From the NCBI RefSeq assembly GCF_000007185.1, contig NC_003551.1:990001-1022000 (forward strand): DNA of 32,000 bases, given 5' to 3'. Shown one piece after another: positions 3,155-30,514 of this stretch; position 1 is the stretch's first letter, and every line of letters begins with the position of its first letter. The DNA comes from Methanopyrus kandleri AV19 (GTDB lineage Archaea; JAADCQ01; Methanopyri; Methanopyrales; Methanopyraceae). Both the position numbers and the translations under genes were made by a program. The notes under the pieces were generated by a model. The model searched no databases. It was not told where the DNA came from and worked only from the letters and a program-made list of their open reading frames with translations.

Positions 3155-3237
3155 CTGCGCAACTGTGCGATCCCCGGATGAGGATACAGCCGGGACCCCG
3201 AGGACCGATGCGGAGTGTGGCCGTAGCTGACGGGCCT

Positions 3238-4059
3238 TCACCTCCGCACACGGACCATGAGTCCGTCGCGCGCCACGACGACTACTGGAAACACCTCCCG
3301 AGCCTCCTCCCTCATTCTTTCCGGATCCACTTTCGTGGACAGGTGCGTCAGTACAAGGAGATCGACGCCTGCCTCGCGGGCGACCTCGGCAGCCTCTAAG
3401 TGGGTCGAGTGCAGGTATCTCACGGCTTCCTCATGATCCTCAAAGCACGCTTCATGTACCAATACCTGGCAACCGCGGACGTTCTCAGGATCGGCCGGAC
3501 GACCGTCTCCTTTCACATACACGGATATCTTACCGGGTTTCGTCAACGAGTACGGGCGCTCACCGCGTAAGAGCACTTCACGCCGCTTCGATGGAGGGAC
3601 CCTTCGTATGTACTTCGGATCCGCCTTTCCCGGTATTTTCGGTGTCTCGATCCGATAGTCGACCGTAGGAACCCCGTGTTCTGACTCGTACACCAGCACC
3701 CTGAGGTCACCGATTTCTACTTCGTCTCCCGGATTCACCTCCCGGTACTCGATCACCTCGAGGTCGGAGATGTCCAAAGCGGACTCAGAACCCGCCGTGG
3801 GACCGTAGACTTTCAACCTACGCCCGTGGAGGAGGTCCACGGTGGTCGCGAGTGGTAGGAGGCCCGCGACGTGATCGACGTGGTGGTGGGTGAGCAGCAC
3901 AGCGTCCACATCGTGGATCGTGACACCTTGCTCCATGGCCCGCCGCTGGGTACCCTCTCCGCAGTCGATTAGAAGCTTGGTTCCGGAGAACTCCACCAGC
4001 AGTCCCGGGTGGCTCCGATCCTTCGACGGGACCGCGCCACCCGTTCCCAGGAAGCGCAT
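3238..4059 (-). CDS. rnz: Ribonuclease Z (tRNA 3' endonuclease), metallo-beta-lactamase fold
   Basis: The likely start is ATG 4059 (MRFLGTGGAVPS...). Motifs present are LIDCGEGTQ, the His motif LTHHHVDH, an exosite-like insert, VHEACF and HSTHLEAAEVA...LVLTHLS. The ORF-track extension to 4152 overlaps the upstream gene and looks non-coding. Confidence 0.85.
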   Translation of the reverse strand: MRFLGTGGAVPSKDRSHPGLLVEFSGTKLLIDCGEGTQRRAMEQGVTIHDVDAVLLTHHHVDHVAGLLPLATTVDLLHGRRLKVYGPTAGSESALDISDLEVIEYREVNPGDEVEIGDLRVLVYESEHGVPTVDYRIETPKIPGKADPKYIRRVPPSKRREVLLRGERPYSLTKPGKISVYVKGDGRPADPENVRGCQVLVHEACFEDHEEAVRYLHSTHLEAAEVAREAGVDLLVLTHLSTKVDPERMREEAREVFPVVVVARDGLMVRVRR

Positions 4060-4066
4060 CACCAGC

Positions 4067-5521: not shown

Positions 5522-5607
5522 GTAATGTCCCCCGAAGGCAACATGAGTTGTCCGTCGTTCGGCGGTATTGAAGCGTTGCCGTACCGACTCGGCCGGGGTC
5601 GACGGCC

Positions 5608-9305: not shown

Positions 9306-9872
9306 TCACCTCTCGGGCTCGAAGAGCGCCAGGTAGGACGTTCTCATCCCCGAGAACAGCGTCCCCCGCCGGAGGACCTTCCCTTCTCCCCACACCATGC
9401 ATAGGCAGGATCGTCTCCAGCCGTCGAGCGCCTTGACCGCCGTGGCGAAGGTCTCGGGTGTGACGGCGTTTAGCAGTATCGCGCGTCGCACGCGCTCGGC
9501 GAGGGCGAGGAGTACCTCTTCCAGCCGCTCGGAACCGGACACGACGGCGGCGTCCACCTCGTCCACGTCCTCCAGGGCCTCGGGGGCCCACCCGCGCACT
9601 ATCTCTATGCGATCCTCCAGGCAGAAGTCCCGGACGTTCCGCTCCAACGATCGGAACGCTTCCTTGTCTCCTTCCACCGCGTACACGCGGCCGAGAGGCC
9701 CTACCGCCCGGGCCAGCTCTAGGGTTAGCGAGCCCGATCCCGCACCGATCTCGAGGATCCTCTCGCCCGGTCGCGGTCGAAGTACGGCCAGCACCGTCGC
9801 TTTCATCACCGGCTTGGTGGGGCCTGGAACACCCTCTGTGACCAAGTCGGAGGGGTCTACGACATTGAACAC
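9306..9872 (-). CDS. cbiT: Cobalt-precorrin-6B C15-methyltransferase (decarboxylating), CbiT
   Basis: It carries the SAM motif ILEIGAGSGSLTLELA, and GVPGPTK near the N-terminus as in CbiT. Starting at GTG 9872 gives 188 aa, which matches the known CbiT length and N-terminal spacing. The ORF-track extension to 10037 is antisense to cbiL. Confidence 0.85.
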   Translation of the reverse strand: MFNVVDPSDLVTEGVPGPTKPVMKATVLAVLRPRPGERILEIGAGSGSLTLELARAVGPLGRVYAVEGDKEAFRSLERNVRDFCLEDRIEIVRGWAPEALEDVDEVDAAVVSGSERLEEVLLALAERVRRAILLNAVTPETFATAVKALDGWRRSCLCMVWGEGKVLRRGTLFSGMRTSYLALFEPER

Positions 9873-10527
9873 GGGAGCACCCACCCTGTACGGAGTGGGC
9901 CTGGGCCCCGGGGATCCCGACCTGCTAACTCGTAAGGCGATCAGGATTATAAAGAAGGTACCCGTCGCGATGGTACCCTTCGTGGGCGCGGAGAGTCGAG
10001 CCGCCAGGGTAGTGCGCGCCGTCGACCCGGAGGCCACCGTGGTCGGTTACCACGCACCGATGACCAGGGACCCGGAGGAACGCGATCGGGCGTACTCGAA
10101 GGCCGCGGAAACCTTGGCGGAACTGCTCGAGCGGTTTCACGAAGTGGCGGTCTGCAACCTCGGAGATCCCACCCTCTACGCCACGTTCTGGCACATCGTG
10201 GAGCGGATCCCACTAGAGGACTTCGAGATAGAGCTGGTCCCCGGAATCCCGGCGGGACTCCTCTGTGCGGCTCGCATCGGCCGCCCCTTAGCGATGGAGA
10301 GTGACAAGGTCCTAATCTGCACTCGGGAACCGCCAGAAGACCTCGAAGGCATGGATACGGTGATACTCTATAAACCAACCCGGCGAGGCGTCGAAAGGCT
10401 TCTCAGGGAGGGGTTCGAGGTCTACGCGTGTCGGGAGCTGGGGTTCGAGGGAGAGCGAGTGGAGCGCGTAAACGGGGCCGAGTTCGAGCCCAGTTACCTG
10501 TGCACGATAGTCGCCCTCCGGCCCTGA
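9865..10527 (+). CDS. cbiL: Cobalt-factor II / precorrin-2 C20-methyltransferase, CbiL
   Basis: The tetrapyrrole methylase N-terminus LYGVGLGPGDPDLLT is present. The nearest start is TTG 9865, with GGAGG at 9849-9853, giving 220 aa. The ORF-track part from 9397 to 9864 is antisense to cbiT and low-complexity. Confidence 0.85.
   Translation: MNTGAPTLYGVGLGPGDPDLLTRKAIRIIKKVPVAMVPFVGAESRAARVVRAVDPEATVVGYHAPMTRDPEERDRAYSKAAETLAELLERFHEVAVCNLGDPTLYATFWHIVERIPLEDFEIELVPGIPAGLLCAARIGRPLAMESDKVLICTREPPEDLEGMDTVILYKPTRRGVERLLREGFEVYACRELGFEGERVERVNGAEFEPSYLCTIVALRP
9946..9954 (-). promoter_or_regulatory. Candidate TATA box (CTTTATAAT on the minus strand) for cbiT, embedded in cbiL coding sequence
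   Basis: This is the only strongly AT-rich element near the head-to-head junction. It lies about 75-80 nt upstream of the cbiT GTG. Confidence 0.25.
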
Positions 10528-13104: not shown

Positions 13105-13803
13105 GTGATCGGTGATCGGCTTCACCCTGGCCGACCGTGGGTGTTCTCCTTGCGAGTGGCCATCCTGGACGGGTACACGGATGAGCCGGCGGGTCTAGGT
13201 GTACCACCCTACCTCGGGACCCACCCCCGGTACGCCTACGGCGCGGCCCGGGCCGCGGGAGCCACTGAGGTGCGGTACGTGCCCGTCGAGCGGGTGAGGT
13301 CGGGCGACGTCGACCTGAACCGCTTCGACGTCGTGGTGGGCATCTGCGGGGTGCACACGCCGGGGAAGTACCTCGGCGCCCGGCCGGCGGACCTCTCCGA
13401 GATGCTCCGTATCCTCAGTGAGGTCGACGCCGTCACGGTCCTAGGTGGGCCGGCGGCTCAGTCCGGACACGGTCGGGTCGGCGGTGAGCTACCCGAGACC
13501 GAAGTCGAGGGTGTGGACGTGATCGCCCGGGGCGACGTCGAGGCCGTGGTGTACGACCTCGTTTCCGAGGGCTCGCCCGAAGCCGTCGACCCCGACCGGA
13601 GGCGATCGATCGAGGAGCTCCGGGAGTACTCCGTGAAGGGAGCACCCGCGGCCCGCGAGCACGTGGACTACCCCGATGCCGTGATCGCGGAGTTGGAGAC
13701 CTACCGAGGTTGCCCCCGTTTCCTGTCCGGTGGGTGCTCGTTCTGCACCGAGGTCCCTAGGTACGGCGAGCCCGGAGTTCAGACCGCCGGAGGACGTCGT
13801 TGA
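13105..13803 (+). CDS. Radical SAM protein (archaeal family with C-terminal HhH), N-terminal segment up to the Fe-S cysteine motif; frame broken
   Basis: The N-terminal flavodoxin/B12-like domain (VAILDGYTDEPAGLGVPPYLG) is followed by YRGCPRFLSGGCSFCTEVPRYGEP. The sequence then degenerates (GVQTAGGRR) and stops. Confidence 0.7.
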   Translation: MIGDRLHPGRPWVFSLRVAILDGYTDEPAGLGVPPYLGTHPRYAYGAARAAGATEVRYVPVERVRSGDVDLNRFDVVVGICGVHTPGKYLGARPADLSEMLRILSEVDAVTVLGGPAAQSGHGRVGGELPETEVEGVDVIARGDVEAVVYDLVSEGSPEAVDPDRRRSIEELREYSVKGAPAAREHVDYPDAVIAELETYRGCPRFLSGGCSFCTEVPRYGEPGVQTAGGRR

Positions 13804-14791
13804 GGAGGTGAAAGCGCTGTACAAGGTAGGTGTCCGCAGGTTCCGGGTCGGACGACAACCTTGCGTGTTCTCCTACATGGCCGAGGGGATCGGGGAGACC
13901 GAGCGACCCCGGCCGAACCCCGAGGCGGTGGAGAAGCTCTTCCGGGGGATCTGCACGGTCGCCCCCGACCTCGTGACGCTCCACGTGGACAACGCGAACC
14001 CGGCGGTGATCGCGGAGCATCCCGTCGAATCCCGGGAGATCGCGAAGGTGTTGGTCCGTTACGGCACCCCCGGCAACGTCGTGGCCTTCGGCGTCGAGAC
14101 CTTCGACGAGCGGGTGGCGAGGAAGAACAACCTGAACGTGGAGTCCAAGGAGGAGGTCTTCCGGGCCATCGAGGTGGTGGCCTCCGTAGGCGGGTACCGC
14201 GGCTGGAACGGGATGCCGTATCTCCTGCCGGGGCTCAACTTCGTGTGCGGTCTCATCGGTGAGAACAGGGAGCGTTACCGTCGCGACGAGGAGGTCCTTC
14301 GGGAGCTGGTGGAACGTGGTCTTCGGGTGCGCCGGATCAACGTCAGGAACGTCGTACCCTTCCCGGGCACAGAGATGGGGGAACACGGTACGAAGTGGCT
14401 CGAACGCAACAGGGAACGGGTGGCCGCGTTCAAGCGCTTCGTCCGGGAAGAGGTGGATCCCGTCCTGCTCCGCCGGGTGCTACCGAAGGGCACCGTCCTG
14501 AGGCGCCTCCGGGTGGAACCCAGAGAACCGGAGTTCGCGCGGCAGGTGGGCTCTTACCCCGTGGCCTGCAGACTACTCGCCGAGCGGGAACCCGGTGAGT
14601 GGGTCGACGGCCTGGTGGTAGGTCACGGGGCTCGTTCCGTCGAGGTGATCCCGCTGCCGGTACGGCGGGAGGACGGTCCGGACGTCCTCGCCAAGCTACC
14701 CGGGGTCGGTAAGAAGGAGGCTCTGGATGCCTTCCTCAAGGGCCGAAGGCCGCGGGTCCCCTATGCCCTGCGGTCCTGGTTCGCGTTCTGA
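13775..14791 (+). CDS. Radical SAM protein, C-terminal segment (continuation in the +1 frame) ending in an HhH motif
   Basis: Frame 2 resumes exactly where expected after the Cys motif (EFRPPEDVVEEVKALYKVGVRRFRVG...). It continues through the TIM-barrel part and a C-terminal LAKLPGVGKKEALDAF HhH. The ORF-track start is 13730. Confidence 0.7.
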   Translation, partial: EFRPPEDVVEEVKALYKVGVRRFRVGRQPCVFSYMAEGIGETERPRPNPEAVEKLFRGICTVAPDLVTLHVDNANPAVIAEHPVESREIAKVLVRYGTPGNVVAFGVETFDERVARKNNLNVESKEEVFRAIEVVASVGGYRGWNGMPYLLPGLNFVCGLIGENRERYRRDEEVLRELVERGLRVRRINVRNVVPFPGTEMGEHGTKWLERNRERVAAFKRFVREEVDPVLLRRVLPKGTVLRRLRVEPREPEFARQVGSYPVACRLLAEREPGEWVDGLVVGHGARSVEVIPLPVRREDGPDVLAKLPGVGKKEALDAFLKGRRPRVPYALRSWFAF

Positions 14792-14792
14792 A

Positions 14793-17700
14793 TCACCAGT
14801 TCCACCTACGGAACTGCCGCCGCGCCCAAAGGACCACGATCATCGACGCGGCCAGTAACCCCACTACCCACTCCCAGATAACCCTAGGCGCGGGAGCACT
14901 CTCCCGGACCATTGCCCTCGCCTCGGACTCCTTCGCGGCCTCCGACTTCAAGGGGACGGCTCGACAGCCGGATCCCGAAGTACCTCCCGTCGAGATCGCT
15001 CCTCCGACCGGTAGGCGACCGTGGAAGATCACCCCGGTCGTAGACACCAGCTCCGACGCCCTCGACACCGACCCCGAGGGGAGGTTACCCACCTCGAGGT
15101 TGTTCGCTCGAGGCGATTCTACGAATTCTACCGCCCGTAAGGATCGAGGGGAAACGGATCGTGGTTCTACCGCGCGGTAGGATGCCCTGCTTCTGGTGAC
15201 GATCATCCTGATCATTTCCGCGACTACCTTGGGGTTGTCCAGCGTACGGTACGCCCGAACGATATCGGGGAGCATCTTCAGGACGTCGTTGAGACCCAGG
15301 GACGCCGCCAGGTTCCGGACGAACGGCACCGTGGACGGGTTCAGGCTCGTGTGGTGGCACGTGGAGGGACCGTACCGTGCCGTGACTTCCGCCCAGGCCC
15401 TGACTAGGGCCTTGAGGGTGTTCCGGTCCGGCTTCCACAGACCCACACGCACCGCCTCCACGAGCCACGAGAGCGTCGACTGTACCTCGGCCCAACCCTT
15501 CGGGGTCGACGGTCGGTAGCGTTCGAGCGCCGACAGTATCGTCGACGCCACCTCGGTCAGCAACGTCTGAACCATCGGTCTGACCTGGGTCGTCGTCACC
15601 GCGATGCCGACGATGTTCTGCACGCGCTTCATCACCTCGTGCCATCCCACGTCCGGTCCGTGGGCCATCAGTGCCTCCCACCAGCTCGGGCTCAGCAGTT
15701 CCGTCCGCACCTCGATCGCCAGCCGCTCCGCCAGGGTTTGTACGTGCGCGGTGGTCGGATCGCGGGCCACCGTCAGGAACACTAGTGGCTCCTTCTTCCT
15801 GATCAACCGCACGTACGTCACCATCCCGCCGATCCAGGAGTAGTAGTCGTTCACGTCGATCACGTTGAACGCGTTCACCACCTGATCTATCACCGCGTCC
15901 ACGGTGCTCGCGAGGTACCGGAAGACCTTCACGGCCTTAACTGCGGCCTCGTACCCAGTCAGCTCCTCTCGAAGCAGCTTGGAGCCGTTCGGGTTACCCG
16001 TGACGGTGAAGGCGTACGCCACCCTGGACTCGAAGATTTCCGCGATCTTCTCCGAGAACCGCGCGTCGACGGTCCCCGCGCCGTCGATCCCCAGGCCCTT
16101 CGTGAGCTCGGACCAGCCCAGCTCCACCAGACGGTTGACACCGGTTCCCTGGATATCGCCCGGTGGCTCCCCGAACACCCCGGTGGCCGCCAGCGGCTCC
16201 GGTACCCCGAGCTTTAGGAGCTCGAGATAGTGCTTCCTACGGTGGTTGTACGCGAGGGGCTCCTCCGCGTCGGAGGCGAGCCGGAAGGCGGCGGCCAGCA
16301 GTTGGACCACCGGCTCGATGGAGTCCAGGACGGCCGTGCAGAGCGCTACCACGTCGATCCTCGGTCGGTTGATCCACCGGTTACCGACCTTCACCTTCAG
16401 CTCGTCCAGCGGGATCAGCTCCACTCCCAGAACTTTGCCGCTGTTCGGGTCCCAGACGGGCTTGACGCCTAGGAGGTACAAGACCTGTGCTATTCCTAAC
16501 CCGCCGGACGTCAGCTCGTGTGATGCGAAGAGCACGATGGGAACGGTCTCGGGCCACCTACCGTATACGCGGTAGTATCGGGCCAGGAAGTCGTCCATGA
16601 GACGCTTAGCGACCTCCCAGGCTTCTGGAGTGGGAAGGGTATACGGGTCGAACGGTACGCCGTTCCGTCCGGTGGGATAGGCCTTGGGGTTCCACAGGGG
16701 CTCCCCGAACCCTCCGGTCGGGACGTGCCCGCCCCTCAGGAAGTTGACGAGATTGTCCAGCTCGTACTCACCGGATTCGTACACGTGAACGAACTCTCTA
16801 AAGGCCTCGGCTATAAGCTTAATAATGTCCTGATCGTACTGATTCGTGACCTCCCATAGACCTATTTTTAACAACGACTGTCGGTACAATCCTAACAAAT
16901 TGAGCTTAAATCGTTGCAGTATGGTGTCCGCTTTTGAGAGCAGTGACGCGTCGTCTCGTAGCTCACCTTCGTCCTTGAGCTCGACCCACTGGAGTAAAAC
17001 CGACCGCAGGTAGGGGTCGTTCCAGATTTCGTGGAGCATCGAGCGGAGCAGCTCGTACGTCCGGATCTTGACATCCTGGTAGAAGTCGGGGTTCTCGTCC
17101 GCTAACCTGCGGAACAGCTCCAGGTCGGCCTTGGGGGTTAACCCCGTCGTGACCGCCAAGTAGGGGGCGAACCGCGGTGCGAAGAGCAACGCCGCCTCCT
17201 CTACAGCGAGCTCGACCGGGAGGTCCTCACCGATGACGTGCAGACCGTAGAACGATTTCTCGTCTCGGAGCGCCAGCAGGTAATCGTGCAGGGCGTCGAG
17301 GAACTCCTCCAGGTGTCGCTCGGCCCAGGACTCGGGATCCTCCGGAGGGCTCTCCCCACGCTCGGCGAAGATGGACTTCACGACGTCCTCGAGGATCCCC
17401 AGCTCCCTCGCCTTCTTCAGGATCTTCTCCGCGATAACCTTCCGTACGGCCGGATCGCCGCCGTATATCGAGGAGCTCACGTACTGCGACCACAACCGCT
17501 CCAGCTCCGCGTATTTGCGAAAGTCCTTGAAATACCCGGATGGAGGGGACGGATACGTCAGGATCACGGCCCCGCCCCGGTACTTCGCCAGCGTCCCTTC
17601 ACCCGGGTTGCTCACAATGTAGAAGTACGCCTGGGGGACGTCCGGGAGCAGCAAGTGCGTCCAGTCCGTGACCGTGAGTCCGCGGTCGTGGCCCGGTAGG

Positions 17701-19529
17701 AACTCGAAGGTGCCGTGCGTGCCCACGTAAACCACCGCGTCCGCGTGGAAGACCCTGCGCAACCACTCGTACGCGGCGATGTACTGCCAATGCGGGGGCA
17801 ACTCCCTGGAGTGGTAGACGGCTTCCGGGCTCCCCGACCAACCACGCACCGGCTGCAGGACCACCGCCACGTTGCCGAACCTGAGGGCGGGGACGAGGTA
17901 CCGGCGACCGTCCGTCATGATCCCTCGGTTGTCGGTCACGTCCCCCCAGGTCCTCCGGAAACCCTCGATCATACCCTCCACGGCGGCTCTGACCGCCTCG
18001 GGATCCAGCTCACGGACGAGGTCGAGGTACGCGTGCAGCCGCCTCACGACGTCCTCCTCGAACCATTCCCGGACGTTTTCGGCCGGAATCAGTTGGTCCC
18101 GGGAGATCGAGCATAGCACGAAGGAGCGACCGTCGACGCTGACCGTGACCTTCCCATCGCGCACCTCGATCTCGACCTCGCGTCCGTCGACGTTCAGCGA
18201 CCACTCGCCGTACCCGCCCTCGTACAGGTCGAACATCCGTCGAAGTTCGCCCTTCGCCCATGGTCCGACGTTCGCGAGCAGGAGCACCGACCGACGCGGG
18301 TCGTGGGGGTCTACCGCGGAGGACATCGCGTTGAACACGGCGACGAACACGTCCTCGAGCGTTCGAGCCTCCCGTGGATCCTCTCGGTACGCGCGGTAGA
18401 GCTCCCGGAAGAACTCCGTCCCGGGGCCCAGGTCGAACCCCTCACCGGCCAGCCTGGCCAGGATCCGCGCGAGGCTCCTGGGGACGTCCAGGTACGCCGC
18501 TCCCAGCTCCGCGCGTCCCGGCGGGTAGCAGTACACGACGAGCGCGACCCTCTTCTCCCGGTCCGGCAACAGCCTGAGTCGGAGTATGTGGTCGACCAGT
18601 CTCCCGAGATCGTCCAGTGTCCCGGGTAGCAGCACGGGCTCGTCGTCCTTCCCGTTCAACCACAGCACCCGGTACCAGAAGGATCCTTCCCGTTCGGAGC
18701 CCAACTGTACCTGATAGGTCCATTCGAGTGAGGGCCCTGCTCGATTCGTCGCGTACTCTCCCAGGCCCATGCTGGCGTCTCCGGTGAAGGGGAACACCAC
18801 CTGGATGACCGGCGTGTTTAGCCTGATGACGACGTACTCGGCCGGTTTCGGGAAGTTCAGCGTGAACGCCCGGACGCTGATTAAGGCCTCCACGCGCTTG
18901 TGCTGCCTTTCCAGCCCGGAAAGTACTTCTACGGGCTTCACGAACGACGATTCGCAGAAGACCGCGACGGTCCGAACGCCGTATCTGCTTGTGACGTCGT
19001 CTAGCGCCTCCGTGAGTCGCAGTACGGCGTCCCTGCGCGGTCCTACGGCGTCGATCCCGTGGGCGAGTACCAGGACGAGGTCATTGGGAAGCCTGGACGC
19101 GAACGCGCTCAGGTCCATTCCACGCAGGACGTCGACAGCCCAGCTCGGTAGCTTCTGGCGGAACCCGAAGAGTACCACGGTCCCTTCGGTCTCTCCGCGG
19201 GCCAAGCGTCGGAGCCAATCTCGGAAGGAGGCGGTGTCGAAGTGTGGGATTCCCCCGATCCATCCGGTCCCCGGGATGTAGGCCGAGAGAGCCGTTCTAA
19301 CGATCGTTCTAGGAGGTTCCACGGCATCCGTCGGGAAGGAGGGGTCGGCCAGCCATAGTAGGAACGTCACGAGAGCGCGCGTGTCCCCCGCCGTCAGACA
19401 CAGCCAGATATGCGCCGCGACGGCCACCTTGGCCTTCACGGGCCGACCGCGGATAACCACCAGCGCGCGCTCCGGATCCGATGTGGCCACCACGACCACG
19501 CGCTTCGTCGAGGCGAGGGCTTCGGCCAA
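14793..19529 (-). CDS. cobN: CobN / Mg-chelatase H family giant protein with a C-terminal membrane anchor
   Basis: 1578 aa. CobN signatures are KRVALVVYCYPPGRAELGAAYLDVPRSLARILARLAGEGFDLG, FLRGGHVPTGGFGEPLWNPKAYPTGRNGVPFDPYTLPT, VLFASHELTSGGLGIAQVLYLLGVKPVWD and RPRIDVVALCTAV. The C-terminus is a TM segment plus basic tail (WVVGLLAASMIVVLWARRQFRRWNW). The only start is a weak TTG at 19529. Confidence 0.85.
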   Translation of the reverse strand: MAEALASTKRVVVVATSDPERALVVIRGRPVKAKVAVAAHIWLCLTAGDTRALVTFLLWLADPSFPTDAVEPPRTIVRTALSAYIPGTGWIGGIPHFDTASFRDWLRRLARGETEGTVVLFGFRQKLPSWAVDVLRGMDLSAFASRLPNDLVLVLAHGIDAVGPRRDAVLRLTEALDDVTSRYGVRTVAVFCESSFVKPVEVLSGLERQHKRVEALISVRAFTLNFPKPAEYVVIRLNTPVIQVVFPFTGDASMGLGEYATNRAGPSLEWTYQVQLGSEREGSFWYRVLWLNGKDDEPVLLPGTLDDLGRLVDHILRLRLLPDREKRVALVVYCYPPGRAELGAAYLDVPRSLARILARLAGEGFDLGPGTEFFRELYRAYREDPREARTLEDVFVAVFNAMSSAVDPHDPRRSVLLLANVGPWAKGELRRMFDLYEGGYGEWSLNVDGREVEIEVRDGKVTVSVDGRSFVLCSISRDQLIPAENVREWFEEDVVRRLHAYLDLVRELDPEAVRAAVEGMIEGFRRTWGDVTDNRGIMTDGRRYLVPALRFGNVAVVLQPVRGWSGSPEAVYHSRELPPHWQYIAAYEWLRRVFHADAVVYVGTHGTFEFLPGHDRGLTVTDWTHLLLPDVPQAYFYIVSNPGEGTLAKYRGGAVILTYPSPPSGYFKDFRKYAELERLWSQYVSSSIYGGDPAVRKVIAEKILKKARELGILEDVVKSIFAERGESPPEDPESWAERHLEEFLDALHDYLLALRDEKSFYGLHVIGEDLPVELAVEEAALLFAPRFAPYLAVTTGLTPKADLELFRRLADENPDFYQDVKIRTYELLRSMLHEIWNDPYLRSVLLQWVELKDEGELRDDASLLSKADTILQRFKLNLLGLYRQSLLKIGLWEVTNQYDQDIIKLIAEAFREFVHVYESGEYELDNLVNFLRGGHVPTGGFGEPLWNPKAYPTGRNGVPFDPYTLPTPEAWEVAKRLMDDFLARYYRVYGRWPETVPIVLFASHELTSGGLGIAQVLYLLGVKPVWDPNSGKVLGVELIPLDELKVKVGNRWINRPRIDVVALCTAVLDSIEPVVQLLAAAFRLASDAEEPLAYNHRRKHYLELLKLGVPEPLAATGVFGEPPGDIQGTGVNRLVELGWSELTKGLGIDGAGTVDARFSEKIAEIFESRVAYAFTVTGNPNGSKLLREELTGYEAAVKAVKVFRYLASTVDAVIDQVVNAFNVIDVNDYYSWIGGMVTYVRLIRKKEPLVFLTVARDPTTAHVQTLAERLAIEVRTELLSPSWWEALMAHGPDVGWHEVMKRVQNIVGIAVTTTQVRPMVQTLLTEVASTILSALERYRPSTPKGWAEVQSTLSWLVEAVRVGLWKPDRNTLKALVRAWAEVTARYGPSTCHHTSLNPSTVPFVRNLAASLGLNDVLKMLPDIVRAYRTLDNPKVVAEMIRMIVTRSRASYRAVEPRSVSPRSLRAVEFVESPRANNLEVGNLPSGSVSRASELVSTTGVIFHGRLPVGGAISTGGTSGSGCRAVPLKSEAAKESEARAMVRESAPAPRVIWEWVVGLLAASMIVVLWARRQFRRWNW

Positions 19530-19533
19530 TGCG

Positions 19534-19875
19534 TCAATTATCGTCCAAGGCAGTCCCGAGGGTCCTCCGGGACAGTTCTCGGGTGAAAGCCGTTGGGACC
19601 GTCCCCATACGCTGGATCACCAACACGTCGGCGGATCGGACGTCCCTCGAGATACCGTCCCAGTCCAAGTTCCCTATGCTCGTGGGATCCTTCGGGATCC
19701 GATGAACGTGTACGGGGATCCCTAACTCCCGGCCTACCTCTTCGGCGTTCGGCAGCGGTGTGGTGCTCAACACGGTGATCTCGACGGCGGAGGCGGAATC
19801 GGAACTTAAAATTTGGATTAACACAACCATTGTAAGAAGTAACACAACTGACGTACGTCGTAAGTGTTTTAACAT
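19534..19875 (-). CDS. Signal-peptide protein resembling the extreme N-terminal beta/alpha units of CobN. It is probably the detached 5' part of the cobN-like gene.
   Basis: ATG 19875 gives MLKHLRRTSVVLLLTMVVLIQILSSDSASA (a Sec-type signal). This is followed by VEITVLSTT...ADVLVIQRMGTVPTAF, which matches the start of the CobN N-terminal domain. The ORF stops 4 nt before the cobN-like ORF, which is in the +1 frame. Confidence 0.55.
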   Translation of the reverse strand: MLKHLRRTSVVLLLTMVVLIQILSSDSASAVEITVLSTTPLPNAEEVGRELGIPVHVHRIPKDPTSIGNLDWDGISRDVRSADVLVIQRMGTVPTAFTRELSRRTLGTALDDN

Positions 19876-19911
19876 CTTCTTGAGTGCCCCGCGCCGGCCA
19901 CGCGACGTGTC

Positions 19912-19919
19912 GAAATAAC
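19912..19919. promoter_or_regulatory. AT-rich element (GAAATAAC / GTTATTTC) within a CGAAA..TTTCG inverted repeat in the divergent intergenic region
   Basis: This is the only AT-rich box between ATG 19875 (minus) and GTG 20030 (plus). It lies about 38-44 nt upstream of the minus-strand ATG. Confidence 0.25.
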
Positions 19920-20029
19920 AGTTTCGGTGGGGGTGAGTCGGTCTGCGCGCGATACCTGTGGCGGCCCTGATCGTCGCCCTTACCGACGTCCGCGTGGGCG
20001 GCTGACTGGGGGAGATCATCGACAAGTCA

Positions 20030-20881
20030 GTGAGGTTTTACTTCGCAGTCGATAAGGCCAGGGAGCGTGGTGTGCCTATCAAGGAGTTCAAGCTGATTCA
20101 GGAGGACGGTTCAGTGTACTGGGAAGGCAAGTTCGGGAGATCTAAGTGGGAGACATCGGGTGAGGTAATTTACGGCAATATGGTAGCTCTATCCGGGATA
20201 TATCTAGGGTTACTCAGCGGCGAGGTGAAACCGAAGACATGGCCCGAACCAGAACGATCCCGATTCGAGAAAGGCATTACCGTCGGACTCGCTCGGATCC
20301 TGTCACTCCAGCAGGAAGATGGTGGCTGGGGATGGAAAGTAGTCCTAGTGGAAGGCAAGACCAGGTTTCCAGCCGGCAAGGGCCATGTCCTGTACACGGC
20401 GAAGATACTCGCTAAAGTGTTGATCCCGGCGCTGCGGTTGAACATTAAGAACGTGAGCTACGGCGGGACCACCTACGACGTCGCCGAACACGCGCGTGCG
20501 GCGGTGAGGTTTCTCATCGACCAGCAGTTGGAGAGCGGTGGATACAGCGCCAACAAGGAGTGGTCGATGACCGAGGACCCGCTCTACACGGCGTGGGCCC
20601 TACGTGCGCTGTGCGAGGCGTACCGGTACAGGGACCTACTGGGGCTCGACGACGCGACCGTCCAGCAGGTCAAAGAGGCGATCCGTAGGGCGGTCGACTG
20701 GTTACTCTCGCACCAGGAGGACGAAGGTGACTACGCCGGGCTATGGGAGATGAAGTCCGCAGCGATCATGGGATCCGCGTACGCCCCACCGTCGGAGGCT
20801 CAAATCGTACGTGCACTTATCCAGGCATACTCGATCTCGGAGGAATTAGGGTTGAACAAGGCCGAGCTCAAGGAGGCATAG
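20030..20881 (+). CDS. Alpha/alpha-toroid protein with prenyltransferase / terpene-cyclase-type repeats, N-terminal segment; frame broken
   Basis: Repeated QW-like motifs are present: RILSLQQEDGGWGW (Q94 at 20309), VRFLIDQQLESGGYS and VDWLLSHQEDEGDYAG. It ends ...NKAELKEA then TAG. No N-terminal signal peptide is present. Confidence 0.6.
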   Translation: MRFYFAVDKARERGVPIKEFKLIQEDGSVYWEGKFGRSKWETSGEVIYGNMVALSGIYLGLLSGEVKPKTWPEPERSRFEKGITVGLARILSLQQEDGGWGWKVVLVEGKTRFPAGKGHVLYTAKILAKVLIPALRLNIKNVSYGGTTYDVAEHARAAVRFLIDQQLESGGYSANKEWSMTEDPLYTAWALRALCEAYRYRDLLGLDDATVQQVKEAIRRAVDWLLSHQEDEGDYAGLWEMKSAAIMGSAYAPPSEAQIVRALIQAYSISEELGLNKAELKEA

Positions 20882-21384
20882 ATCGGGCGCTGGAGGCGAT
20901 CGTGGACTGGGCGCTGAAGTACCAGGATGCCTCGCTGGTGGAGTTCGACGGTCGGAAGGTGCTCGGCTGGGCCTACTCGTCGACACGCCTGGAGAGTTGC
21001 GGTCCGTACCTCGGGTACACCGCCCTCATAGCCGCCACGCTGAAGCTGGCGCAGGAGCTGGGCCTAGGGTCGAAAGCCGTCGAGAAGATGAGGTCCGTCG
21101 GAGTGACCTTAGAGGATGAGGCGGAGTGGGTGGCTCACGAGTGGCAAGAGATCGACGGACTCGGGTACTTCCTGTACCCGAACTCCAAGGCCGAGCACAA
21201 AACGGTGACACCGTCGAGCCAGCTCTACGGACTGACCTGTGCGGTGGCGTTCTCGCACCCAGAGGTGCTGTTGAAGCGCACTACGGCGGACGTTTGGAAG
21301 CTGGTGCCTAAGAAGGGAGCGTGGAAAGTTCCAGTGTGGCCGGTGGTCACGGTGGTGCTGCTATTCGCGTGCCGACGCCGCTAA
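20878..21384 (+). CDS. Alpha/alpha-toroid protein, C-terminal segment (continuation in the -1 frame) with a C-terminal anchor
   Basis: The segment reads IDRALEAIVDWALKYQDASL..., continuing the repeat pattern (compare KEAIRRAVDWLLSHQ upstream). It ends in KVPVWPVVTVVLLFACRRR. The ORF-track start at 20743 is an out-of-frame extension. Confidence 0.6.
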   Translation: MDRALEAIVDWALKYQDASLVEFDGRKVLGWAYSSTRLESCGPYLGYTALIAATLKLAQELGLGSKAVEKMRSVGVTLEDEAEWVAHEWQEIDGLGYFLYPNSKAEHKTVTPSSQLYGLTCAVAFSHPEVLLKRTTADVWKLVPKKGAWKVPVWPVVTVVLLFACRRR

Positions 21385-21400
21385 CCCGTTTTCTGTCCTC

Positions 21401-21422
21401 ACGGATACTCTTTCGTATCCGT
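21401..21422 (+). terminator. Perfect 8-bp hairpin (ACGGATAC-TCTTTC-GTATCCGT) flanked by pyrimidine/T-rich tracts after the toroid gene
   Basis: It lies 17 nt after the TAA at 21382-21384. It is preceded by GTTTTCTGTCCTC and followed by TCTTCTCT. Confidence 0.4.
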
Positions 21423-21515
21423 TCTTCTCTGAGGTGGCGGGTGAAAGTACTCACAACTAATTCACGACTTCTTCCAACCAGTGTAGAAATTTCGTTGACA
21501 AAAACTCGGTTCCAC

Positions 21516-21526
21516 TTTAATTTAAA
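21516..21526 (+). promoter_or_regulatory. TATA box (TTTAATTTAAA) with Shine-Dalgarno GGGGGTGA (21552-21559) for the CbiX-like gene
   Basis: This strong AT-rich box lies about 40-50 nt upstream of GTG 21565. A 7-bp stem (AGCCGCC..GGCGGCT, 21526-21549) lies between the box and the SD. Confidence 0.4.
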
Positions 21527-21564
21527 GCCGCCGGCCATGTGGGGCGGCTGTAGGGGGTGAGACC

Positions 21565-23082
21565 GTGAGGTTCCCGGCGCTGGTCATCGGGCTACTCGTT
21601 GCACTGGGTCCGACCGCAGCCAGTGAAAGTCCCAAGGTTGCCGTAGTGATGCCGTACCACGGCAGTTACGATCCGCACTGGATCTACATGGCCCACGAAC
21701 TCCCTGAGAAAGTCCAAGAGATACTGAGCGTAACCTATGACGAATACAATATTCAAGTGTATCCAGGCAGTTTCGAAACCTACGACGTGACCAAGGTGCG
21801 ACTTCAGGGCGGTAAGGAGTACGTCATCCATCAGGAAGAGGTGAACACGGGCGAGGAAGTCCTAAAGACCGAACTCGGGCACGCCCTCAAGGAGGCCGAA
21901 GAGTTCACGAACTCCGGTAGGGACGGTCTGATCGTCGTGCTACCGGCCTTCGTGAACCGAGGAGGTCAGCACCAGTGCGTGGAGATCCCGGAAGTTATCG
22001 ACATCATCTTGGGCGATAAGGTGCCCAAGTACTCGGTCCACTACGAGCCGTTCGGTATTACAAACTGGGACCGCCAGAACGACATCGGTATCGTACCGGA
22101 GCTGCTCTTCAGGAACATACAGACGGAGGCTGAGAAGACACTGACAGGACCGAACGGTCAAGGTGATCCCGAAGACGTGTTCTCGGCGTACAAGGATAAG
22201 AGACTCCTGGACTTCCTGGTGGACCACAAGGACGAGGTCGGTCTCCTCGAGATCATGTTCGGCACCCTGCGGGTGGGTTACTGGGACGACTTCAAGGCGA
22301 ACGCTATGTACGTACTACGTGGTGTCGCCGAGAGACTCGGTAACCTCCTGGGGACGACGATCCCGGTCGGTGAGGTCGACTGGGCGCTGGAGAACCCGTT
22401 CGTGAGGGAGGGTAAGGCGTACTTCTTCGCGTTCCAGAACCCGGAGATCGGTCCAGAGAACTGGGAGAAGTCACGCTGGGAGGTCCGATACGAGCAGTTC
22501 CAGAAGCTGATGCAGAGTCTCTGCAGGCAGGGCGTCAGGTACGTGGTCGCATTCCCGTACATCACGGTGACCGGTATCACGGACCGCAAGCTGTTCGAAG
22601 GCAACCCGGAGCACGGTCCCGAAGGTGACGAGCCCGAGGCTTACGACTATCCGGAAGCCATTCTGCGGCATTTCGGTGCGGAGTTAGTGGCGGAGACCGT
22701 AGCCGACGTCAGGAAGTACACGTACGTGCAGGAGGGTCAGGAGAAAACCCGGACGGTGTACATCAACGCTCGGATCTACCGGATCCCGAAGGAGAAACTG
22801 GGCACGGACGCCGACATGTACGTGATCTACGTGAGACGCGGGCTGTTGGACGCTCCGAACGCGACGGAGAAGGTGGCGCGGGTGTACGCCAACTACATCG
22901 CCACTCACCTGCCGACGTGGTTGATGGAGTACGAGGCGGTGAAGGGGATGAAGGAGGGGTTCGAGGGCGAGATTAACTCGCTGAGGAAGGATGTCAAGAG
23001 CCTCAAGAAGAGGAAGGTCGCGGTGTATCCGGCGGTAATCGCGCTGGCGCTGGCGATGATCCCGCCGCTCCGGCGCCGCTAA
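21565..23082 (+). CDS. CbiX/CbiK-like (class II chelatase fold) protein with an N-terminal signal peptide and a C-terminal anchor
   Basis: 505 aa. The signal peptide is MRFPALVIGLLVALGPTAAS. VAVVMPYHGS (H32 at 21658) and LIVVLPAFVNRGGQHQCVEIPEVI resemble the CbiX HGS and PlfL-G-H-DIP motifs. A second lobe reads RYVVAFPYITVTG. The C-terminus is KVAVYPAVIALALAMIPPLRRR. Confidence 0.5.
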   Translation: MRFPALVIGLLVALGPTAASESPKVAVVMPYHGSYDPHWIYMAHELPEKVQEILSVTYDEYNIQVYPGSFETYDVTKVRLQGGKEYVIHQEEVNTGEEVLKTELGHALKEAEEFTNSGRDGLIVVLPAFVNRGGQHQCVEIPEVIDIILGDKVPKYSVHYEPFGITNWDRQNDIGIVPELLFRNIQTEAEKTLTGPNGQGDPEDVFSAYKDKRLLDFLVDHKDEVGLLEIMFGTLRVGYWDDFKANAMYVLRGVAERLGNLLGTTIPVGEVDWALENPFVREGKAYFFAFQNPEIGPENWEKSRWEVRYEQFQKLMQSLCRQGVRYVVAFPYITVTGITDRKLFEGNPEHGPEGDEPEAYDYPEAILRHFGAELVAETVADVRKYTYVQEGQEKTRTVYINARIYRIPKEKLGTDADMYVIYVRRGLLDAPNATEKVARVYANYIATHLPTWLMEYEAVKGMKEGFEGEINSLRKDVKSLKKRKVAVYPAVIALALAMIPPLRRR

Positions 23083-23139
23083 CGCCCCCCACTTCGACAA
23101 ACGTTACGAATGTATTAACGATCGACCGTGGGGGCGTTA
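23080..23139. terminator. Inverted repeat (TAACGCCCCCCAC ... GTGGGGGCGTTA) spanning the stop codons of two convergent genes
   Basis: The 13-nt arm at 23080-23092 and the 12-nt arm at 23128-23139 pair with a single C bulge and an AT-richer 35-nt loop. Each arm begins with the TAA stop of its gene. Confidence 0.4.
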
Positions 23140-23922
23140 AGGGGCTTCCGCGAGCTCGTAGGGGTCGTGATTCACCCGGACCTCGCGTCCCGGACCCGTC
23201 AGCTCCACCTCGGGCGCGTACCCCAGGGACTCCAGGTCCTCGTACAGGGCCAGATGTCCCGAGAGATCACAGTACTCGGCCCTCAACGCACCGGCGAGGT
23301 GTGCGGCCGCCTTTACGGAGACGGCGCTCTCCACCTCCGTCAGCACGATGATCTTGAATCCGAGCTCCCTGGCCTTGCGTCCGAGCAGTACCGCGTCTAG
23401 GAAACCGACCTCTTGAACGCTTAAAGCCACTCCCTCGGCTGAACCCAGCCCGTGGATGTCCTCCTCCGACGTCACACGGACGTAGATGGGGACCTCCGCG
23501 TCGAACTCCTCCGGTGAGATCACGACTATCTCCGCGTCGGACACGGACCGTACCTCCTCGAGGGCCCGCTCAGAGGGTCGGTCCGTGAACTCTAGAAGTA
23601 CGGTCTCGAAGTCCAGGGCGGACACCGAGGACAACCCCGCCGAGTCGGCGCGTACACGGACCACCGTGTACCCGACGGAGAGGTTGTCACGCGCCTCCCG
23701 GAGTGCCCCGTGCTTTCCGAGTTCGTGGACGGAGCACGCGGACTCGACGGTTCTCGGCTCTCCCCCCAGCAGTTCCGCGAGTGGGAGGCCCTGAGACCGG
23801 GCCTCGGCATCCATCACGGCCATCTCGTGGGCTACGGCCGGATCGAACCCCGAAACCGGTCCCGTAGTGGCCCTCCGATGAGTAAACCCGGCACACGTAG
23901 CCGTCGACGCGACCGGCGGCAC
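23137..23922 (-). CDS. Enolase-superfamily (MR/MLE, dipeptide-epimerase-like) protein, N-terminally short and with divergent catalytic positions
   Basis: AVAHEMAVMDAEARSQGLPLAELLGG matches the AIDxALWD...PLxxLLGG helix of MR/MLE enzymes. The C-terminal LTEVESAVSVKAAAHLAGAL matches the barrel end. The KxK box is replaced by VRVR. Only about 30 aa precede the capping-domain helix. GTG start at 23922. Confidence 0.55.
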   Translation of the reverse strand: MPPVASTATCAGFTHRRATTGPVSGFDPAVAHEMAVMDAEARSQGLPLAELLGGEPRTVESACSVHELGKHGALREARDNLSVGYTVVRVRADSAGLSSVSALDFETVLLEFTDRPSERALEEVRSVSDAEIVVISPEEFDAEVPIYVRVTSEEDIHGLGSAEGVALSVQEVGFLDAVLLGRKARELGFKIIVLTEVESAVSVKAAAHLAGALRAEYCDLSGHLALYEDLESLGYAPEVELTGPGREVRVNHDPYELAEAP

Positions 23923-23940
23923 CGTTTAAGGTAACCCGGC

Positions 23941-23960
23941 GGGTCTCGACGGGTCTCAAG
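23941..23960. repeat. Tandem 10-nt direct repeat (GGGTCTCGAC GGGTCTCAAG) in the divergent intergenic region
   Basis: The repeat is read directly from the sequence. It lies between the enolase-like start (23922) and the Mur ligase start (23984), next to a GTTTAAGG box at 23924-23931. Confidence 0.3.
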
Positions 23961-23983
23961 GCGGATCCCGCCCCGCCGGGAGG

Positions 23984-25405
23984 GTGAACGTGTTGAAGCG
24001 GGTTATAGTTGTCGGAGCCGGCAGTGCGGGACGGTCGGTGGCGCGGCTGCTGAACCACGTGGGGTACGACGTCGTGATCAACGACATCCGCGATTGGGAG
24101 GACTTCACCACGGAGGAGCGCGAGTATCTGGAGGTTCTCGAGCGCGAGGGCGTCGAGGTGGCCCTCGGGGGACACGATCGGGAGCTCTTCGAGTCGGCCG
24201 ACGCGGCCTTCGTGTCCCCGGCGATCCCCGAGGACGCCGAGGGTAGGAAGCTCGCGGAGCTGGTCCCCGAGGAGATCACCGTCGAGGACGTTGCCGGGCT
24301 GTTGGGAGACCTGTTCCCCGTACCCGCCATCGGGATCACAGGAACGAACGGGAAGACCACCACGACCTGGGCGGTGGCGCATCTCCTGGAGGCCTGCGGG
24401 TACGAGGTCTGGCGGTGCTCGTCCCTCGACAGGCACCTCGTCATCGAGGCGATAGTGGACGGCGTGGTGACGGGTGAGATCGAGGGCTACGACGTGGCCG
24501 TCGTGGAGCTCCCACACGGGACGATCAGACTGGCGGCCGGTATCGAGCTGGACGTCGGGGTGCTGACGAACGTCTCACCGGAGCACTTGGACGAGTTCGG
24601 CGGTTCCTTCGAGCGGTACGTTCGTCGGAAACTCACGATAACTGAAATGAGTGAAGTGCTGGTGGCCGGCTACGACTGCGAGGAGCTGCGGAAGCGCCTG
24701 AACGACGCGGTCTGGTACTCCGTGCGGGATCCCGACGCCGACTACTACGGACGTAGGGAGAACGGACGTCTCGTGGTGAAGGGACCCGACGCCTCGGTGG
24801 AAGCCGACTTCCACCTGATCGGTTACTACGTAGAGAACTGCACGGGAGCCGTCGCCGCCTGTCTAGAGTTCGGCGCCGATCCCGAGGGGGTCGCCGAGGG
24901 TCTCGCCACGTTCGAGGGCGTTCCCGGGCGCATGGAGCTGCTGGGGGAGTTCTCGGGTCGTGTAGCCTACATCGACGCGGCACACAATCCGGACGGTCTG
25001 AAGGCGTCGCTTCCACCGTTCCGGGAGCTCGCGGACGAACGGGGCGGAAGACTGCTCGTCAGCGTGGACAATCCCGACACCGTGACCGAGCGCGACAAGT
25101 TCGAGTTCGGGCGGATAGTAGGGGAGTACGCCGATTTCGTGGCGGCCAGCGGGTACAACGAGACCCTGGAGCGGCTCGACCGGTCGGCCGCCGAGGAGGT
25201 AGTGAAGGGCGCCGAGTCGGCGGGTTGCGAGGGGGTGGCCGTAGACTCGGTCCGGGAGGCTGCCGAGGAGGTGGCCGCACGGTCCGAGGAGGGAGACGTG
25301 TTGCTCCACGTGGGGCCGGGGGTGGTGAACGCGTACGATCGGGTCAAGCGCGCCTTCCTGCGCGGTCTGACCTCGGTGCTGGGGGAACCTTCGGATGAAG
25401 CATGA
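23984..25405 (+). CDS. Mur ligase family protein, MurD-like (candidate pseudomurein peptide ligase)
   Basis: 473 aa. It has an N-terminal Rossmann segment VIVVGAGSAGRSVARLL, the ATP-binding motif GITGTNGKTTTT, and central and C-terminal Mur ligase domain patterns (DAAHNPDGL). The start could be 23984, 23990 or 23993. Confidence 0.85.
   Translation: MNVLKRVIVVGAGSAGRSVARLLNHVGYDVVINDIRDWEDFTTEEREYLEVLEREGVEVALGGHDRELFESADAAFVSPAIPEDAEGRKLAELVPEEITVEDVAGLLGDLFPVPAIGITGTNGKTTTTWAVAHLLEACGYEVWRCSSLDRHLVIEAIVDGVVTGEIEGYDVAVVELPHGTIRLAAGIELDVGVLTNVSPEHLDEFGGSFERYVRRKLTITEMSEVLVAGYDCEELRKRLNDAVWYSVRDPDADYYGRRENGRLVVKGPDASVEADFHLIGYYVENCTGAVAACLEFGADPEGVAEGLATFEGVPGRMELLGEFSGRVAYIDAAHNPDGLKASLPPFRELADERGGRLLVSVDNPDTVTERDKFEFGRIVGEYADFVAASGYNETLERLDRSAAEEVVKGAESAGCEGVAVDSVREAAEEVAARSEEGDVLLHVGPGVVNAYDRVKRAFLRGLTSVLGEPSDEA

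Positions 25406-30436: not shown

Positions 30437-30514
<78 letters not shown>

Follow-up and report, generated by a model that had tools for sequence, protein, structure and literature searches.

Organization of the locus

The stretch analysed here, a window of 32,000 nucleotides from the genome of Methanopyrus kandleri AV19 (NC_003551.1, positions 990,001 to 1,022,000), carries at positions 14793..23082 a divergent cluster of genes for a CobN-like protein, an alpha/alpha-toroid protein and a CbiX-like protein. The three large genes put forward in the original prediction represent real families; however, two of them, encoding the CobN-like protein and the toroid, are disrupted by frameshifts in AV19.

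On the minus strand, the body of the CobN-like gene (14793..19533) comprises, according to Pfam matches, motifs and hydropathy, a chelatase core, a Ser/Arg/Gly-rich linker, a C-terminal transmembrane helix VIWEWVVGLLAASMIVVLWA and the tail RRQFRRWNW. Its open reading frame (ORF) of 1578 residues (14793..19529 in the ORF map) corresponds to AAM02254/WP_148679680, which RefSeq names 'cobaltochelatase subunit CobN'. An N-terminal fragment of 113 residues (19534..19875, minus strand), comprising a Sec-type signal peptide together with the initial ~80 ectodomain residues, lies within a 163-codon ORF (19534..20025, minus strand) in which the Met at 19875 begins MLKHLRRTSVVLLLTMVVLIQILSSDSASA, followed by VEITVL and the N-terminus of CobN. 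On the plus strand, the toroid gene (19958..21384), a pseudogene in AV19, has its ancestral start at GTG 19958 and encodes the C-terminal tail KVPVWPVVTVVLLFACRRR; what survives in the ORF map are two overlapping ORFs, 20030..20881 (283 residues; AAM02256, named 'terpene cyclase/mutase family' in databases) and 20743..21384 (213 residues). The gene for the CbiX-like protein of 505 residues (21565..23082, plus strand) is an intact ORF and corresponds to AAM02258/Q8TWI9, carried in databases as 'hypothetical'.

The divergent intergenic region (19876..19957), with a TATA-like AAATAA box and an inverted repeat, had been given as 154 bp. Measured from the ancestral toroid start it is 82 bp, the same length as in L008, the other M. 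kandleri assembly. Overlapping the AAATAA box, the inverted repeat (CGAAA-N6-TTTCG, 19911-19926) is partly kept in five other Methanopyraceae spacers and may be an operator; an alignment of six Methanopyraceae spacers gave no convincing operator.

The CobN-like protein

Judged by its sequence, the CobN-like protein belongs, as a highly divergent subunit of the CobN type, to the class I chelatases and retains its active-site residues. Membership in the CobN family, as originally proposed, is clear: the 1578-residue ORF matches Pfam PF02514 (CobN-Mg_chel) at an E-value of 3e-168 (562 bits against a cut-off of 24.5) over residues 174-1371 and model positions 91-1089, and orthologues match it at 8.5e-157. 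Among sequences with solved structures, ChlH (2e-76) scored ahead of CobN (6e-69) and HmuS (5e-56). All NCBIfam equivalog models for CobN and BchH remained far under their cut-offs (327-420 bits against 822-1900); the best CobN model of the set comprising TIGR02257 and NF004643-6 reached 352 bits against 1248, and TIGR02257 itself 327 against 822. The closest relatives outside Methanopyraceae share 28-30% identity across 27-54% of the length.

The active-site motifs were read from an alignment of 14 sequences. The motif YVGTHGTFEFLPG with the catalytic His (GTHG; YVGTHG) and the motif SNPGEG(T) are invariant in six Methanopyraceae sequences, and the Glu of the latter is presumably the equivalent of E660 of ChlH. 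Also invariant in the Methanopyraceae proteins is DVNDYYSWIGG, a motif of the CobN type DxNDYYxxxGG, in which an Asp occupies the place where ChlH (DVSHYF) and HmuS (LSLDHxxEFMGG) have a His. Bacterial CobN also has Asp here (DSDDYYQFEGG), and the Asp of DxxDYYxxxGG is common to the bacterial CobN proteins P0060 and P0062.

The protein, put originally at about 1690 residues if joined to the upstream segment, is encoded in the orthologues by a single uninterrupted ORF (1696 residues in P0006, 1735 in KOL6 (CP019470, 1123159+3089..8296), 1800 in L006 and 1742 in L007); in AV19 the reading frame is split by a +1 shift. The strong hydrophobic segments of a CobN-like orthologue are an N-terminal signal peptide and a C-terminal helix of ~20 residues before RRQFRRWNW, the latter preceded by a linker rich in Ser, Val, Arg and Gly. 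A borderline hydropathy window (score 1.66) falls within the catalytic core, at residues 1178-1196 of the full-length orthologue.

The alpha/alpha-toroid protein

The toroid protein, described originally as a single protein of 451 residues, is in AV19 actually represented by the overlapping ORFs of 283 and 213 residues. Its QW-type repeats (QQEDGGWGW, QQLESGGYS and HQEDEGDYAG) are present in the AV19 sequence, and the proposed fold was borne out by structure prediction and comparison. Orthologues are intact at 474-519 residues, with an AxA-type signal peptide and a C-terminus in which [VI]P[x][x]P is followed by a hydrophobic stretch and RRR. The AlphaFold2 model of the orthologue P0009 (mean pLDDT confidence 84.5; predicted template-modelling score, pTM, 0.86), when compared with the Protein Data Bank (PDB) by Foldseek, matched many (alpha/alpha)6 barrels at probability 1.00. 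These included GH88/GH105 and GH15 enzymes, MmpH, TED domains of complement and, among terpene enzymes, a drimenyl diphosphate synthase, all of them generic fold matches (E-values of 1e-4 to 1e-2, template-modelling (TM) scores of 0.3-0.6).

Profile searches gave matches below cut-off only (SQHop_cyclase_C at 22.8-24.1 bits against 26.1; TIGR01787 at 30 against 323), and the first AV19 toroid ORF has only sub-threshold SQHop_cyclase/TED matches in Pfam. Neither Pfam Cobalamin_bind nor any hidden Markov model (HMM) of a glycoside hydrolase family matched the toroid. The suggested link to transcobalamin proved weak, with transcobalamin structures at ranks 37, 45 and 49 of the Foldseek list (E-values of 0.035-0.06, TM scores of 0.27-0.34), where glycoside hydrolases, terpene synthases and the TED domains of complement rank higher. 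On the basis of the model, the (alpha/alpha)6 fold class of the predicted protein is confirmed, with no specific family or ligand assignable. In a word-indexed homology search, relatives of the toroid were found only in Methanopyrus and other Methanopyraceae.

The CbiX-like protein

The 505-residue protein is predicted to consist of a signal peptide (residues 1-~20), an N-lobe, a C-lobe, a beta-rich insert, a stalk helix of ~47 residues (433-479) and the tail VYPAVIALALAMIPPLRRR. Its description as a two-lobed CbiX/CbiK-like protein is supported by profile matches, a His pair and a ferrochelatase fold match; the claim that both lobes carry the motifs did not hold, since MPYHGS and VVLPAFVNRGGQHQCVEIPEVI, which do occur in the ORF, both belong to the N-lobe. 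In the family alignment, His32 (YHGS) and His136 (GGQHQxVEIP) of the N-lobe are nearly invariant, whereas the C-lobe is devoid of the His pair and has FGTLR and the invariant TVTGITDRKLFEGNP at the equivalent places. We take the placement of the His pair in the N-lobe to be a SirB/CbiXL-like arrangement.

The family has twelve relatives, all from Methanopyraceae (the KOL6 protein has 499 residues), and Pfam CbiX matches eight of these at E<=1 (best 7.8e-7). The gathering score of 22 bits is exceeded only in P0040-42 (26.5-29.8 bits), where the match lies in the C-lobe; the N-lobe of P0039 shows a weak match of 17 bits. PAFVNRGGQHQ of the N-lobe could be aligned provisionally with PLFISYG-LH of the Archaeoglobus fulgidus CbiXS at an E-value of 0.057, and His32 and His136 may be the counterparts of the catalytic His10 and His74 of CbiXS. 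In the AlphaFold2 model (pLDDT 83.7, pTM 0.82), two beta-alpha-beta lobes are followed by the beta-rich insert, the 47-residue helix and the anchor, and the PDB structure with the highest Foldseek probability is the Bacillus subtilis ferrochelatase (0.82, TM score 0.51). These features suggest that the protein is likely class II chelatase-like.

Searches of PDB sequences with the profile of the 505-residue protein and with each lobe alone returned nothing meaningful, and alignment of the N-lobe against the C-lobe with hhalign detected no internal duplication. When 1.84 billion representative proteins were searched with the profile, no relatives outside the Methanopyraceae family were found; the sole outside match to the profile, P0073, was rejected as a repeat artefact in a eukaryote-like protein. 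Co-occurrence of the trio across methanogens is thus contradicted, as both the 505-residue family (profile search) and the toroid family (word-indexed search) were found only in Methanopyraceae.

Export and membrane anchoring

Intact orthologues of all three proteins have Sec-type signal peptides with AxA sites, a C-terminal hydrophobic anchor and an Arg-rich tail, in agreement with the predicted Sec-type signals and with the hydrophobic helix and Arg-rich tail predicted for each C-terminus. These features point to all three proteins being exported and tethered to the membrane by the C-terminal anchor.

The tail, consisting of [VI]PxxP, 10-14 hydrophobic residues and RRR, recurs on several otherwise unrelated exported proteins of Methanopyraceae. 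Tails of the VPxxP type were located in the window (21325..21384 and 23020..23082) and in proteins encoded at 6193..7938 of L009, 4957..7842 and 7944..9689 of L011 and 9020..9706 of L001; certain orthologues have fewer hydrophobic residues here than a normal transmembrane helix requires. Of the curated CTERM models, which include PGF-CTERM, only the bacterial MYXO, GC_trans_RRR and JDVT-CTERM models gave matches, all sub-threshold (<=17.7 bits, with cut-offs of 15.85-27). The VPxxP-hydrophobic-RRR tail may constitute a lineage-specific sorting or anchoring signal. The density of N-glycosylation sequons is not enriched in the trio.

Frameshifts in AV19

The disruptions were mapped by aligning 10 kb of the window to L008 (91% nucleotide identity), in which the CobN-like protein of 1696 residues, signal peptide included, and the toroid of 495 residues are both uninterrupted. 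In AV19, a +1 insertion at ~19537-19538 (AAT TGA) severs the N-terminal fragment of the CobN-like gene from its body. The toroid gene differs from that of L008 by -5 at ~19980, -1 at ~20007 and -1 at ~20877; the first two of these garble the last part of the signal peptide and introduce a TGA at 20003-20005, and the surviving toroid ORFs are devoid of the signal peptide.

These frameshifts are real in AV19, because four independent Logan assemblies (from the separate sequencing runs ERR9765742, -43, -47 and -49) carry the same indels. The assemblies are 99.99% identical to the window across 7.6-10.5 kb, and all four reproduce both the split of the CobN-like gene into 113 residues plus body and the toroid fragment of 283 residues. 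They depart from the window at a single base, a G at ~23848 within the 273-residue gene on the minus strand (23137..23922), which is extra in the window and absent from the four Logan contigs. The window also has an extra C at ~13771, a +1 relative to L008, in the radical-SAM gene (13105..14791), the protein of which is intact at 546 residues in the deposited as well as the independently assembled versions. The extra bases at ~13771 and ~23848 are probably reference errors that produce false frameshifts.

It could be argued that the CobN-like and toroid frameshifts are likewise sequencing artefacts, or programmed recoding sites, and that full-length proteins are made in AV19. Such single-base errors do exist nearby, and the shift site AAT TGA C has a superficial likeness to +1 sites at which an in-frame stop is used. 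We nevertheless regard this explanation as very unlikely, given that the four assemblies keep the CobN and toroid indels while correcting the error at ~23848, that three separate indels in the toroid gene, including a 5-nucleotide deletion, are incompatible with recoding, and that the orthologues are contiguous ORFs. Selenocysteine or stop-codon recoding at the CobN junction was rejected, the two ORFs being in different frames, and the published CobN read-through concerns a UAG in Methanosarcina and not the gene considered here.

Between AV19 and L008, omega ranges from 0.11 to 0.19 except in the distal toroid fragment (0.45), so that no general relaxation of constraint is apparent, and the inactivation is therefore recent. 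With the CobN-like and toroid genes frameshifted, the module is probably non-functional in AV19, and the AV19 genes annotated as 'CobN' and 'terpene cyclase' are pseudogene fragments. Synonymous divergence between AV19 and L008 amounts to 0.41-0.58 from the CobN N-terminus through the 505-residue gene (window ~19530..23082), in contrast to 0.11-0.17 in the flanking genes and the body of the CobN-like gene; this pattern points to a tract of recombination or to long-standing allelic diversity at a surface locus.

Conservation and a second module

Five Methanopyraceae genomes (KOL6, L006, L007, L008 and L004) share the conserved gene order polB, radical SAM, CobN-like (minus strand), toroid (plus), 505-residue protein (plus), 273-residue protein (minus), pMurD1 and hydantoinase-B. 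The toroid and 505-residue genes are intact in all five genomes and the CobN-like gene is uninterrupted in all but L004. In this metagenome-assembled genome (MAG) the CobN-like gene is split at another site (7354..7360), after LAHG, into 278 and 1513 residues, and a near-identical relative, P0056 (1792 residues), is intact; the split is either an assembly error of the MAG or an independent disruption. Within Methanopyrus (pairwise, four genomes), the ratio of non-synonymous to synonymous divergence (dN/dS) is 0.11-0.20 for the trio against 0.05-0.12 for the flanking genes, and the dN of the trio exceeds that of the housekeeping genes on either side by a factor of 3-4. By these estimates the trio is under purifying selection, with an elevated dN typical of surface proteins.

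KOL6 has a second CobN paralogue, P0070, of 2090 residues, with a signal peptide and a C-terminal transmembrane helix. Directly upstream of it is encoded a protein of 581 residues that has a signal peptide, ends in the same type of C-terminal tail (KKVPMVPLVMATLSVLALASLRRR) and can be aligned with the profile of the toroid family across 140 columns (E-value 1.4e-4). A pair of 581 and 2123 residues, separated by a gap of 20 bp, recurs in a MAG at 62% identity, and a scan of contigs with the toroid of the second module gave just one additional locus. The second module is located in an unrelated neighbourhood, and the existence of two paralogous pairs of CobN and toroid genes in different neighbourhoods is the strongest evidence here that both proteins act together.

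Neighbouring genes

Neither the window ORFs covered by the scan nor the gene tables for the 20-kb syntenic loci contained a gene for an AAA+ chelatase partner, as had been noted for the window. Upstream, cbiT (minus strand; TIGR02469, E 1.6e-31) and cbiL (plus strand, from ~9880; TIGR01467, E 4.8e-41), the latter encoding cobalt-factor II C20-methyltransferase, form a divergent pair at 9306..10527, 4.3 kb from the CobN-like gene. Directly downstream of the cluster (23137..25405) are the 273-residue enolase-superfamily or epimerase-like gene and then the pseudomurein peptide ligase gene pMurD1 (NF053646, 614 bits against a cut-off of 610). An Rfam scan of the window found no cobalamin or other riboswitch; a tRNA-Thr (GGT) at 30437..30514 is the sole Rfam or ARAGORN match.

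Relationship to known chelatase systems

Exported CobN-family (de)chelatases have been known since HmuS and BtuS. HmuS of Bacteroidota (PDB 9D26) is a CobN homologue anchored by N- and C-terminal helices that acts as an ATP-independent haem de-chelatase and removes iron; its catalytic His538 belongs to the superfamily-wide motif HFG(T/A)HG (PMC12583661). The CobN-like protein of Methanopyrus resembles it as a large member of the same superfamily (E 5e-56) with terminal hydrophobic segments, a retained catalytic His and no AAA+ partner found nearby. It differs in its archaeal host, in being devoid of the hmu operon context (TonB receptor, HmuY, ExbBD), in an N-terminal segment that resembles a cleavable signal peptide, and in having a toroid and a CbiX-like protein as partners. 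The N-terminal region corresponding to the head and neck haem site of HmuS (Met79, His254-Gly-Arg) could not be reliably aligned, and an LAHG at ~270 is conserved in the Methanopyrus group only. On a bacterial metagenome contig (L010, 6494..11341), an hmu-like arrangement was seen, in which a MotA/ExbB-like gene and a small ORF come after the gene for a CobN homologue with a membrane anchor (P0063). Anchored homologues of CobN accompanied by energy-transducer partners are thus more widespread.

With CobN, the large subunit of the aerobic cobaltochelatase CobNST, the CobN-like protein shares the PF02514 match and the CobN-type Asp in DxxDYYxxxGG; unlike it, the protein is predicted to be exported and anchored, is 400-500 residues longer owing to a novel N-terminal region and the linker, scores below the equivalog cut-offs with at most 30% identity over about half its length, and has no CobS or CobT genes nearby. 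For the CbiX-like protein, the nearest precedents are the extracytoplasmic CbiK-type chelatases that bind or metalate porphyrins, namely the periplasmic CbiK of Desulfovibrio vulgaris and FetB of Porphyromonas gingivalis (PMC13065792). The 505-residue protein likewise appears to be exported, with two predicted Rossmann-like lobes, a weak CbiX signal and a His pair that may occupy the CbiX catalytic positions; however, it is about twice their size, having in addition a beta-rich insert, a stalk of coiled-coil type and an anchor at the C-terminus, has no significant sequence match to solved chelatases and was found in Methanopyraceae only. The toroid shares the (alpha/alpha)6 barrel and the QxxDGGW-type repeats with prenyltransferases and terpene cyclases, but in contrast to these and to the transcobalamin and GH88/GH105 toroids it stays below the profile cut-offs, is predicted to be exported and carries the VPxxP-hydrophobic-RRR tail.

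Literature searches found no published description of this gene set. To this extent it is unprecedented, as had been supposed, although the concept has precedents in HmuS (PMC12583661) and in the extracytoplasmic CbiK-type enzymes (PMC13065792). What is new relative to HmuS is an archaeal variant that lacks the HmuS motifs and has a CobN-type site, together with two partner families found only in Methanopyraceae.

Proposed function and alternative explanations

Taken together by analogy, these observations lead us to propose, tentatively and a little short of calling it probable, that the locus may encode an extracytoplasmic, ATP-independent module for (de)chelation or capture of tetrapyrroles or metals that is specific to Methanopyraceae. 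Ordinary ATP-driven cobalt insertion had been considered improbable, and we concur: the CobN-like protein would be unable to act as an ATP-driven chelatase because it carries export signals and no AAA+ motor is encoded nearby. Operation without ATP is suggested because HmuS, an anchored CobN homologue, works without it. In genomes with an intact module (KOL6 and three to four others), the three exported proteins would be tethered outside the cytoplasmic membrane, where they could bind metallo-tetrapyrroles or corrinoids, or free Ni or Co, at the envelope, and remove, insert or exchange the metal. The toroid would be a dedicated partner of the CobN-like protein, as a ligand carrier or scaffold, and the CbiX-like protein on its long helical stalk might provide a second site of binding or (de)metalation. 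The families, the topology signals, their conservation, the paralogous pairing and the pseudogenes of AV19 are observed; the ATP-independent mechanism, the class of substrate, the direction of the reaction and the physical interaction of the three proteins are what we infer here.

Several observations weigh against this proposal. The motif LSLDHxxEFMGG of HmuS (with His1209 and Glu1212) reads DVNDYYSWIGG in the CobN-like protein, with Asp for His and Ser for Glu, and the Met-rich insertion of HmuS is missing (Met content 1.2%, at most four per window of 120 residues); in the absence of these defining motifs, the analogy with HmuS is therefore topological and does not amount to a family assignment. 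By fold, the toroid is closest to glycoside hydrolases and lyases and not to tetrapyrrole binders. The AV19 505-residue protein has no sequence match in Pfam, NCBIfam or the PDB, the lowest Foldseek E-values of its model belong to periplasmic-binding-protein folds, and its assignment to CbiX is weak. Its membership in the module is also less secure, because in the most divergent lineage (L001-L003) the homologue adjoins the radical-SAM gene with no toroid gene ahead of it, and because the second module has no CbiX-like gene, which is found in the first module only. The whole neighbourhood is syntenic, so adjacency within Methanopyrus alone is weak evidence. Finally, AV19 is able to grow although two genes of the trio are disrupted, and the module is thus dispensable, at least in culture.

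The main alternative is that the locus is concerned with the envelope and its glycans, the toroid being glycoside hydrolase- or lyase-like or binding glycans such as those of pseudomurein or the S-layer, with the CobN-like and CbiX-like proteins co-opted as surface proteins that serve in structure or binding and have no connection with tetrapyrroles. The GH88/GH105/GH15/MmpH-type enzymes and complement TED domains among the top matches of the toroid, the elevated dN, as in surface proteins, and the anchors with the architecture of a sorting signal would all suit such a role, as would the pMurD1 and epimerase-like genes that come after the cluster. However, the fold matches of the toroid are generic and unaccompanied by a glycoside hydrolase HMM match, the link to pMurD1 is merely part of a fully syntenic neighbourhood, and the neighbourhood of the second module is unrelated. 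As the core of the CobN-like protein keeps the catalytic His, Glu and Asp motifs in all orthologues and the CbiX-like N-lobe retains both His residues, we consider the glycan explanation unlikely. An ordinary cytoplasmic cobaltochelatase CobN for B12 synthesis, served by CobS/CobT-like partners encoded elsewhere, would accord with the RefSeq name, the CobN-type DxxDYY motif and the proximity of cbiT and cbiL. This is hardly credible for a protein with an N-terminal signal peptide and a C-terminal transmembrane anchor, equivalog scores of 327-420 bits where 822-1900 are required, 28-30% identity to CobN outside the family and no AAA+ partner found nearby. Methanogens, moreover, use the early-cobalt (anaerobic) route with CbiX-type chelatases, which also counts against it.

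The proposal of an extracytoplasmic (de)chelation or capture module can be extended, though in this form we regard it as rather doubtful, to a self-contained surface machine. A CobN-type chelatase, a toroid carrier with a function like that of GUN4 or transcobalamin, and a protein of the class II chelatase fold, delivered by the VPxxP-hydrophobic-RRR tail as a hitherto unrecognized sorting signal, would together and without ATP strip or swap the Ni, Co or Fe of metallo-tetrapyrroles or corrinoids from the environment of a hydrothermal vent, or capture these metals there.

Significance

Many homologues of CobN, ChlH and HmuS occur in archaea, and especially in methanogens, without cob, chl or hmu partners. 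The role of the archaeal homologues has been called unclear (PMC12583661), and in Methanothermobacter one CobN homologue is made only when Ni is limiting (PMC12350162). The locus described here offers a testable case, in which an apparently exported CobN-like protein with its catalytic residues kept is paired twice with a toroid and joined once by a class II chelatase-like protein. If extracellular (de)metalation of tetrapyrroles proves to be its function, two protein families and perhaps an anchoring signal of archaea would be newly defined, and chemistry of the HmuS type would be extended to Archaea and to the Ni and Co economy of methanogens. Should the module work as a surface machine, it would provide a first function for many of the unexplained archaeal CobN paralogues.

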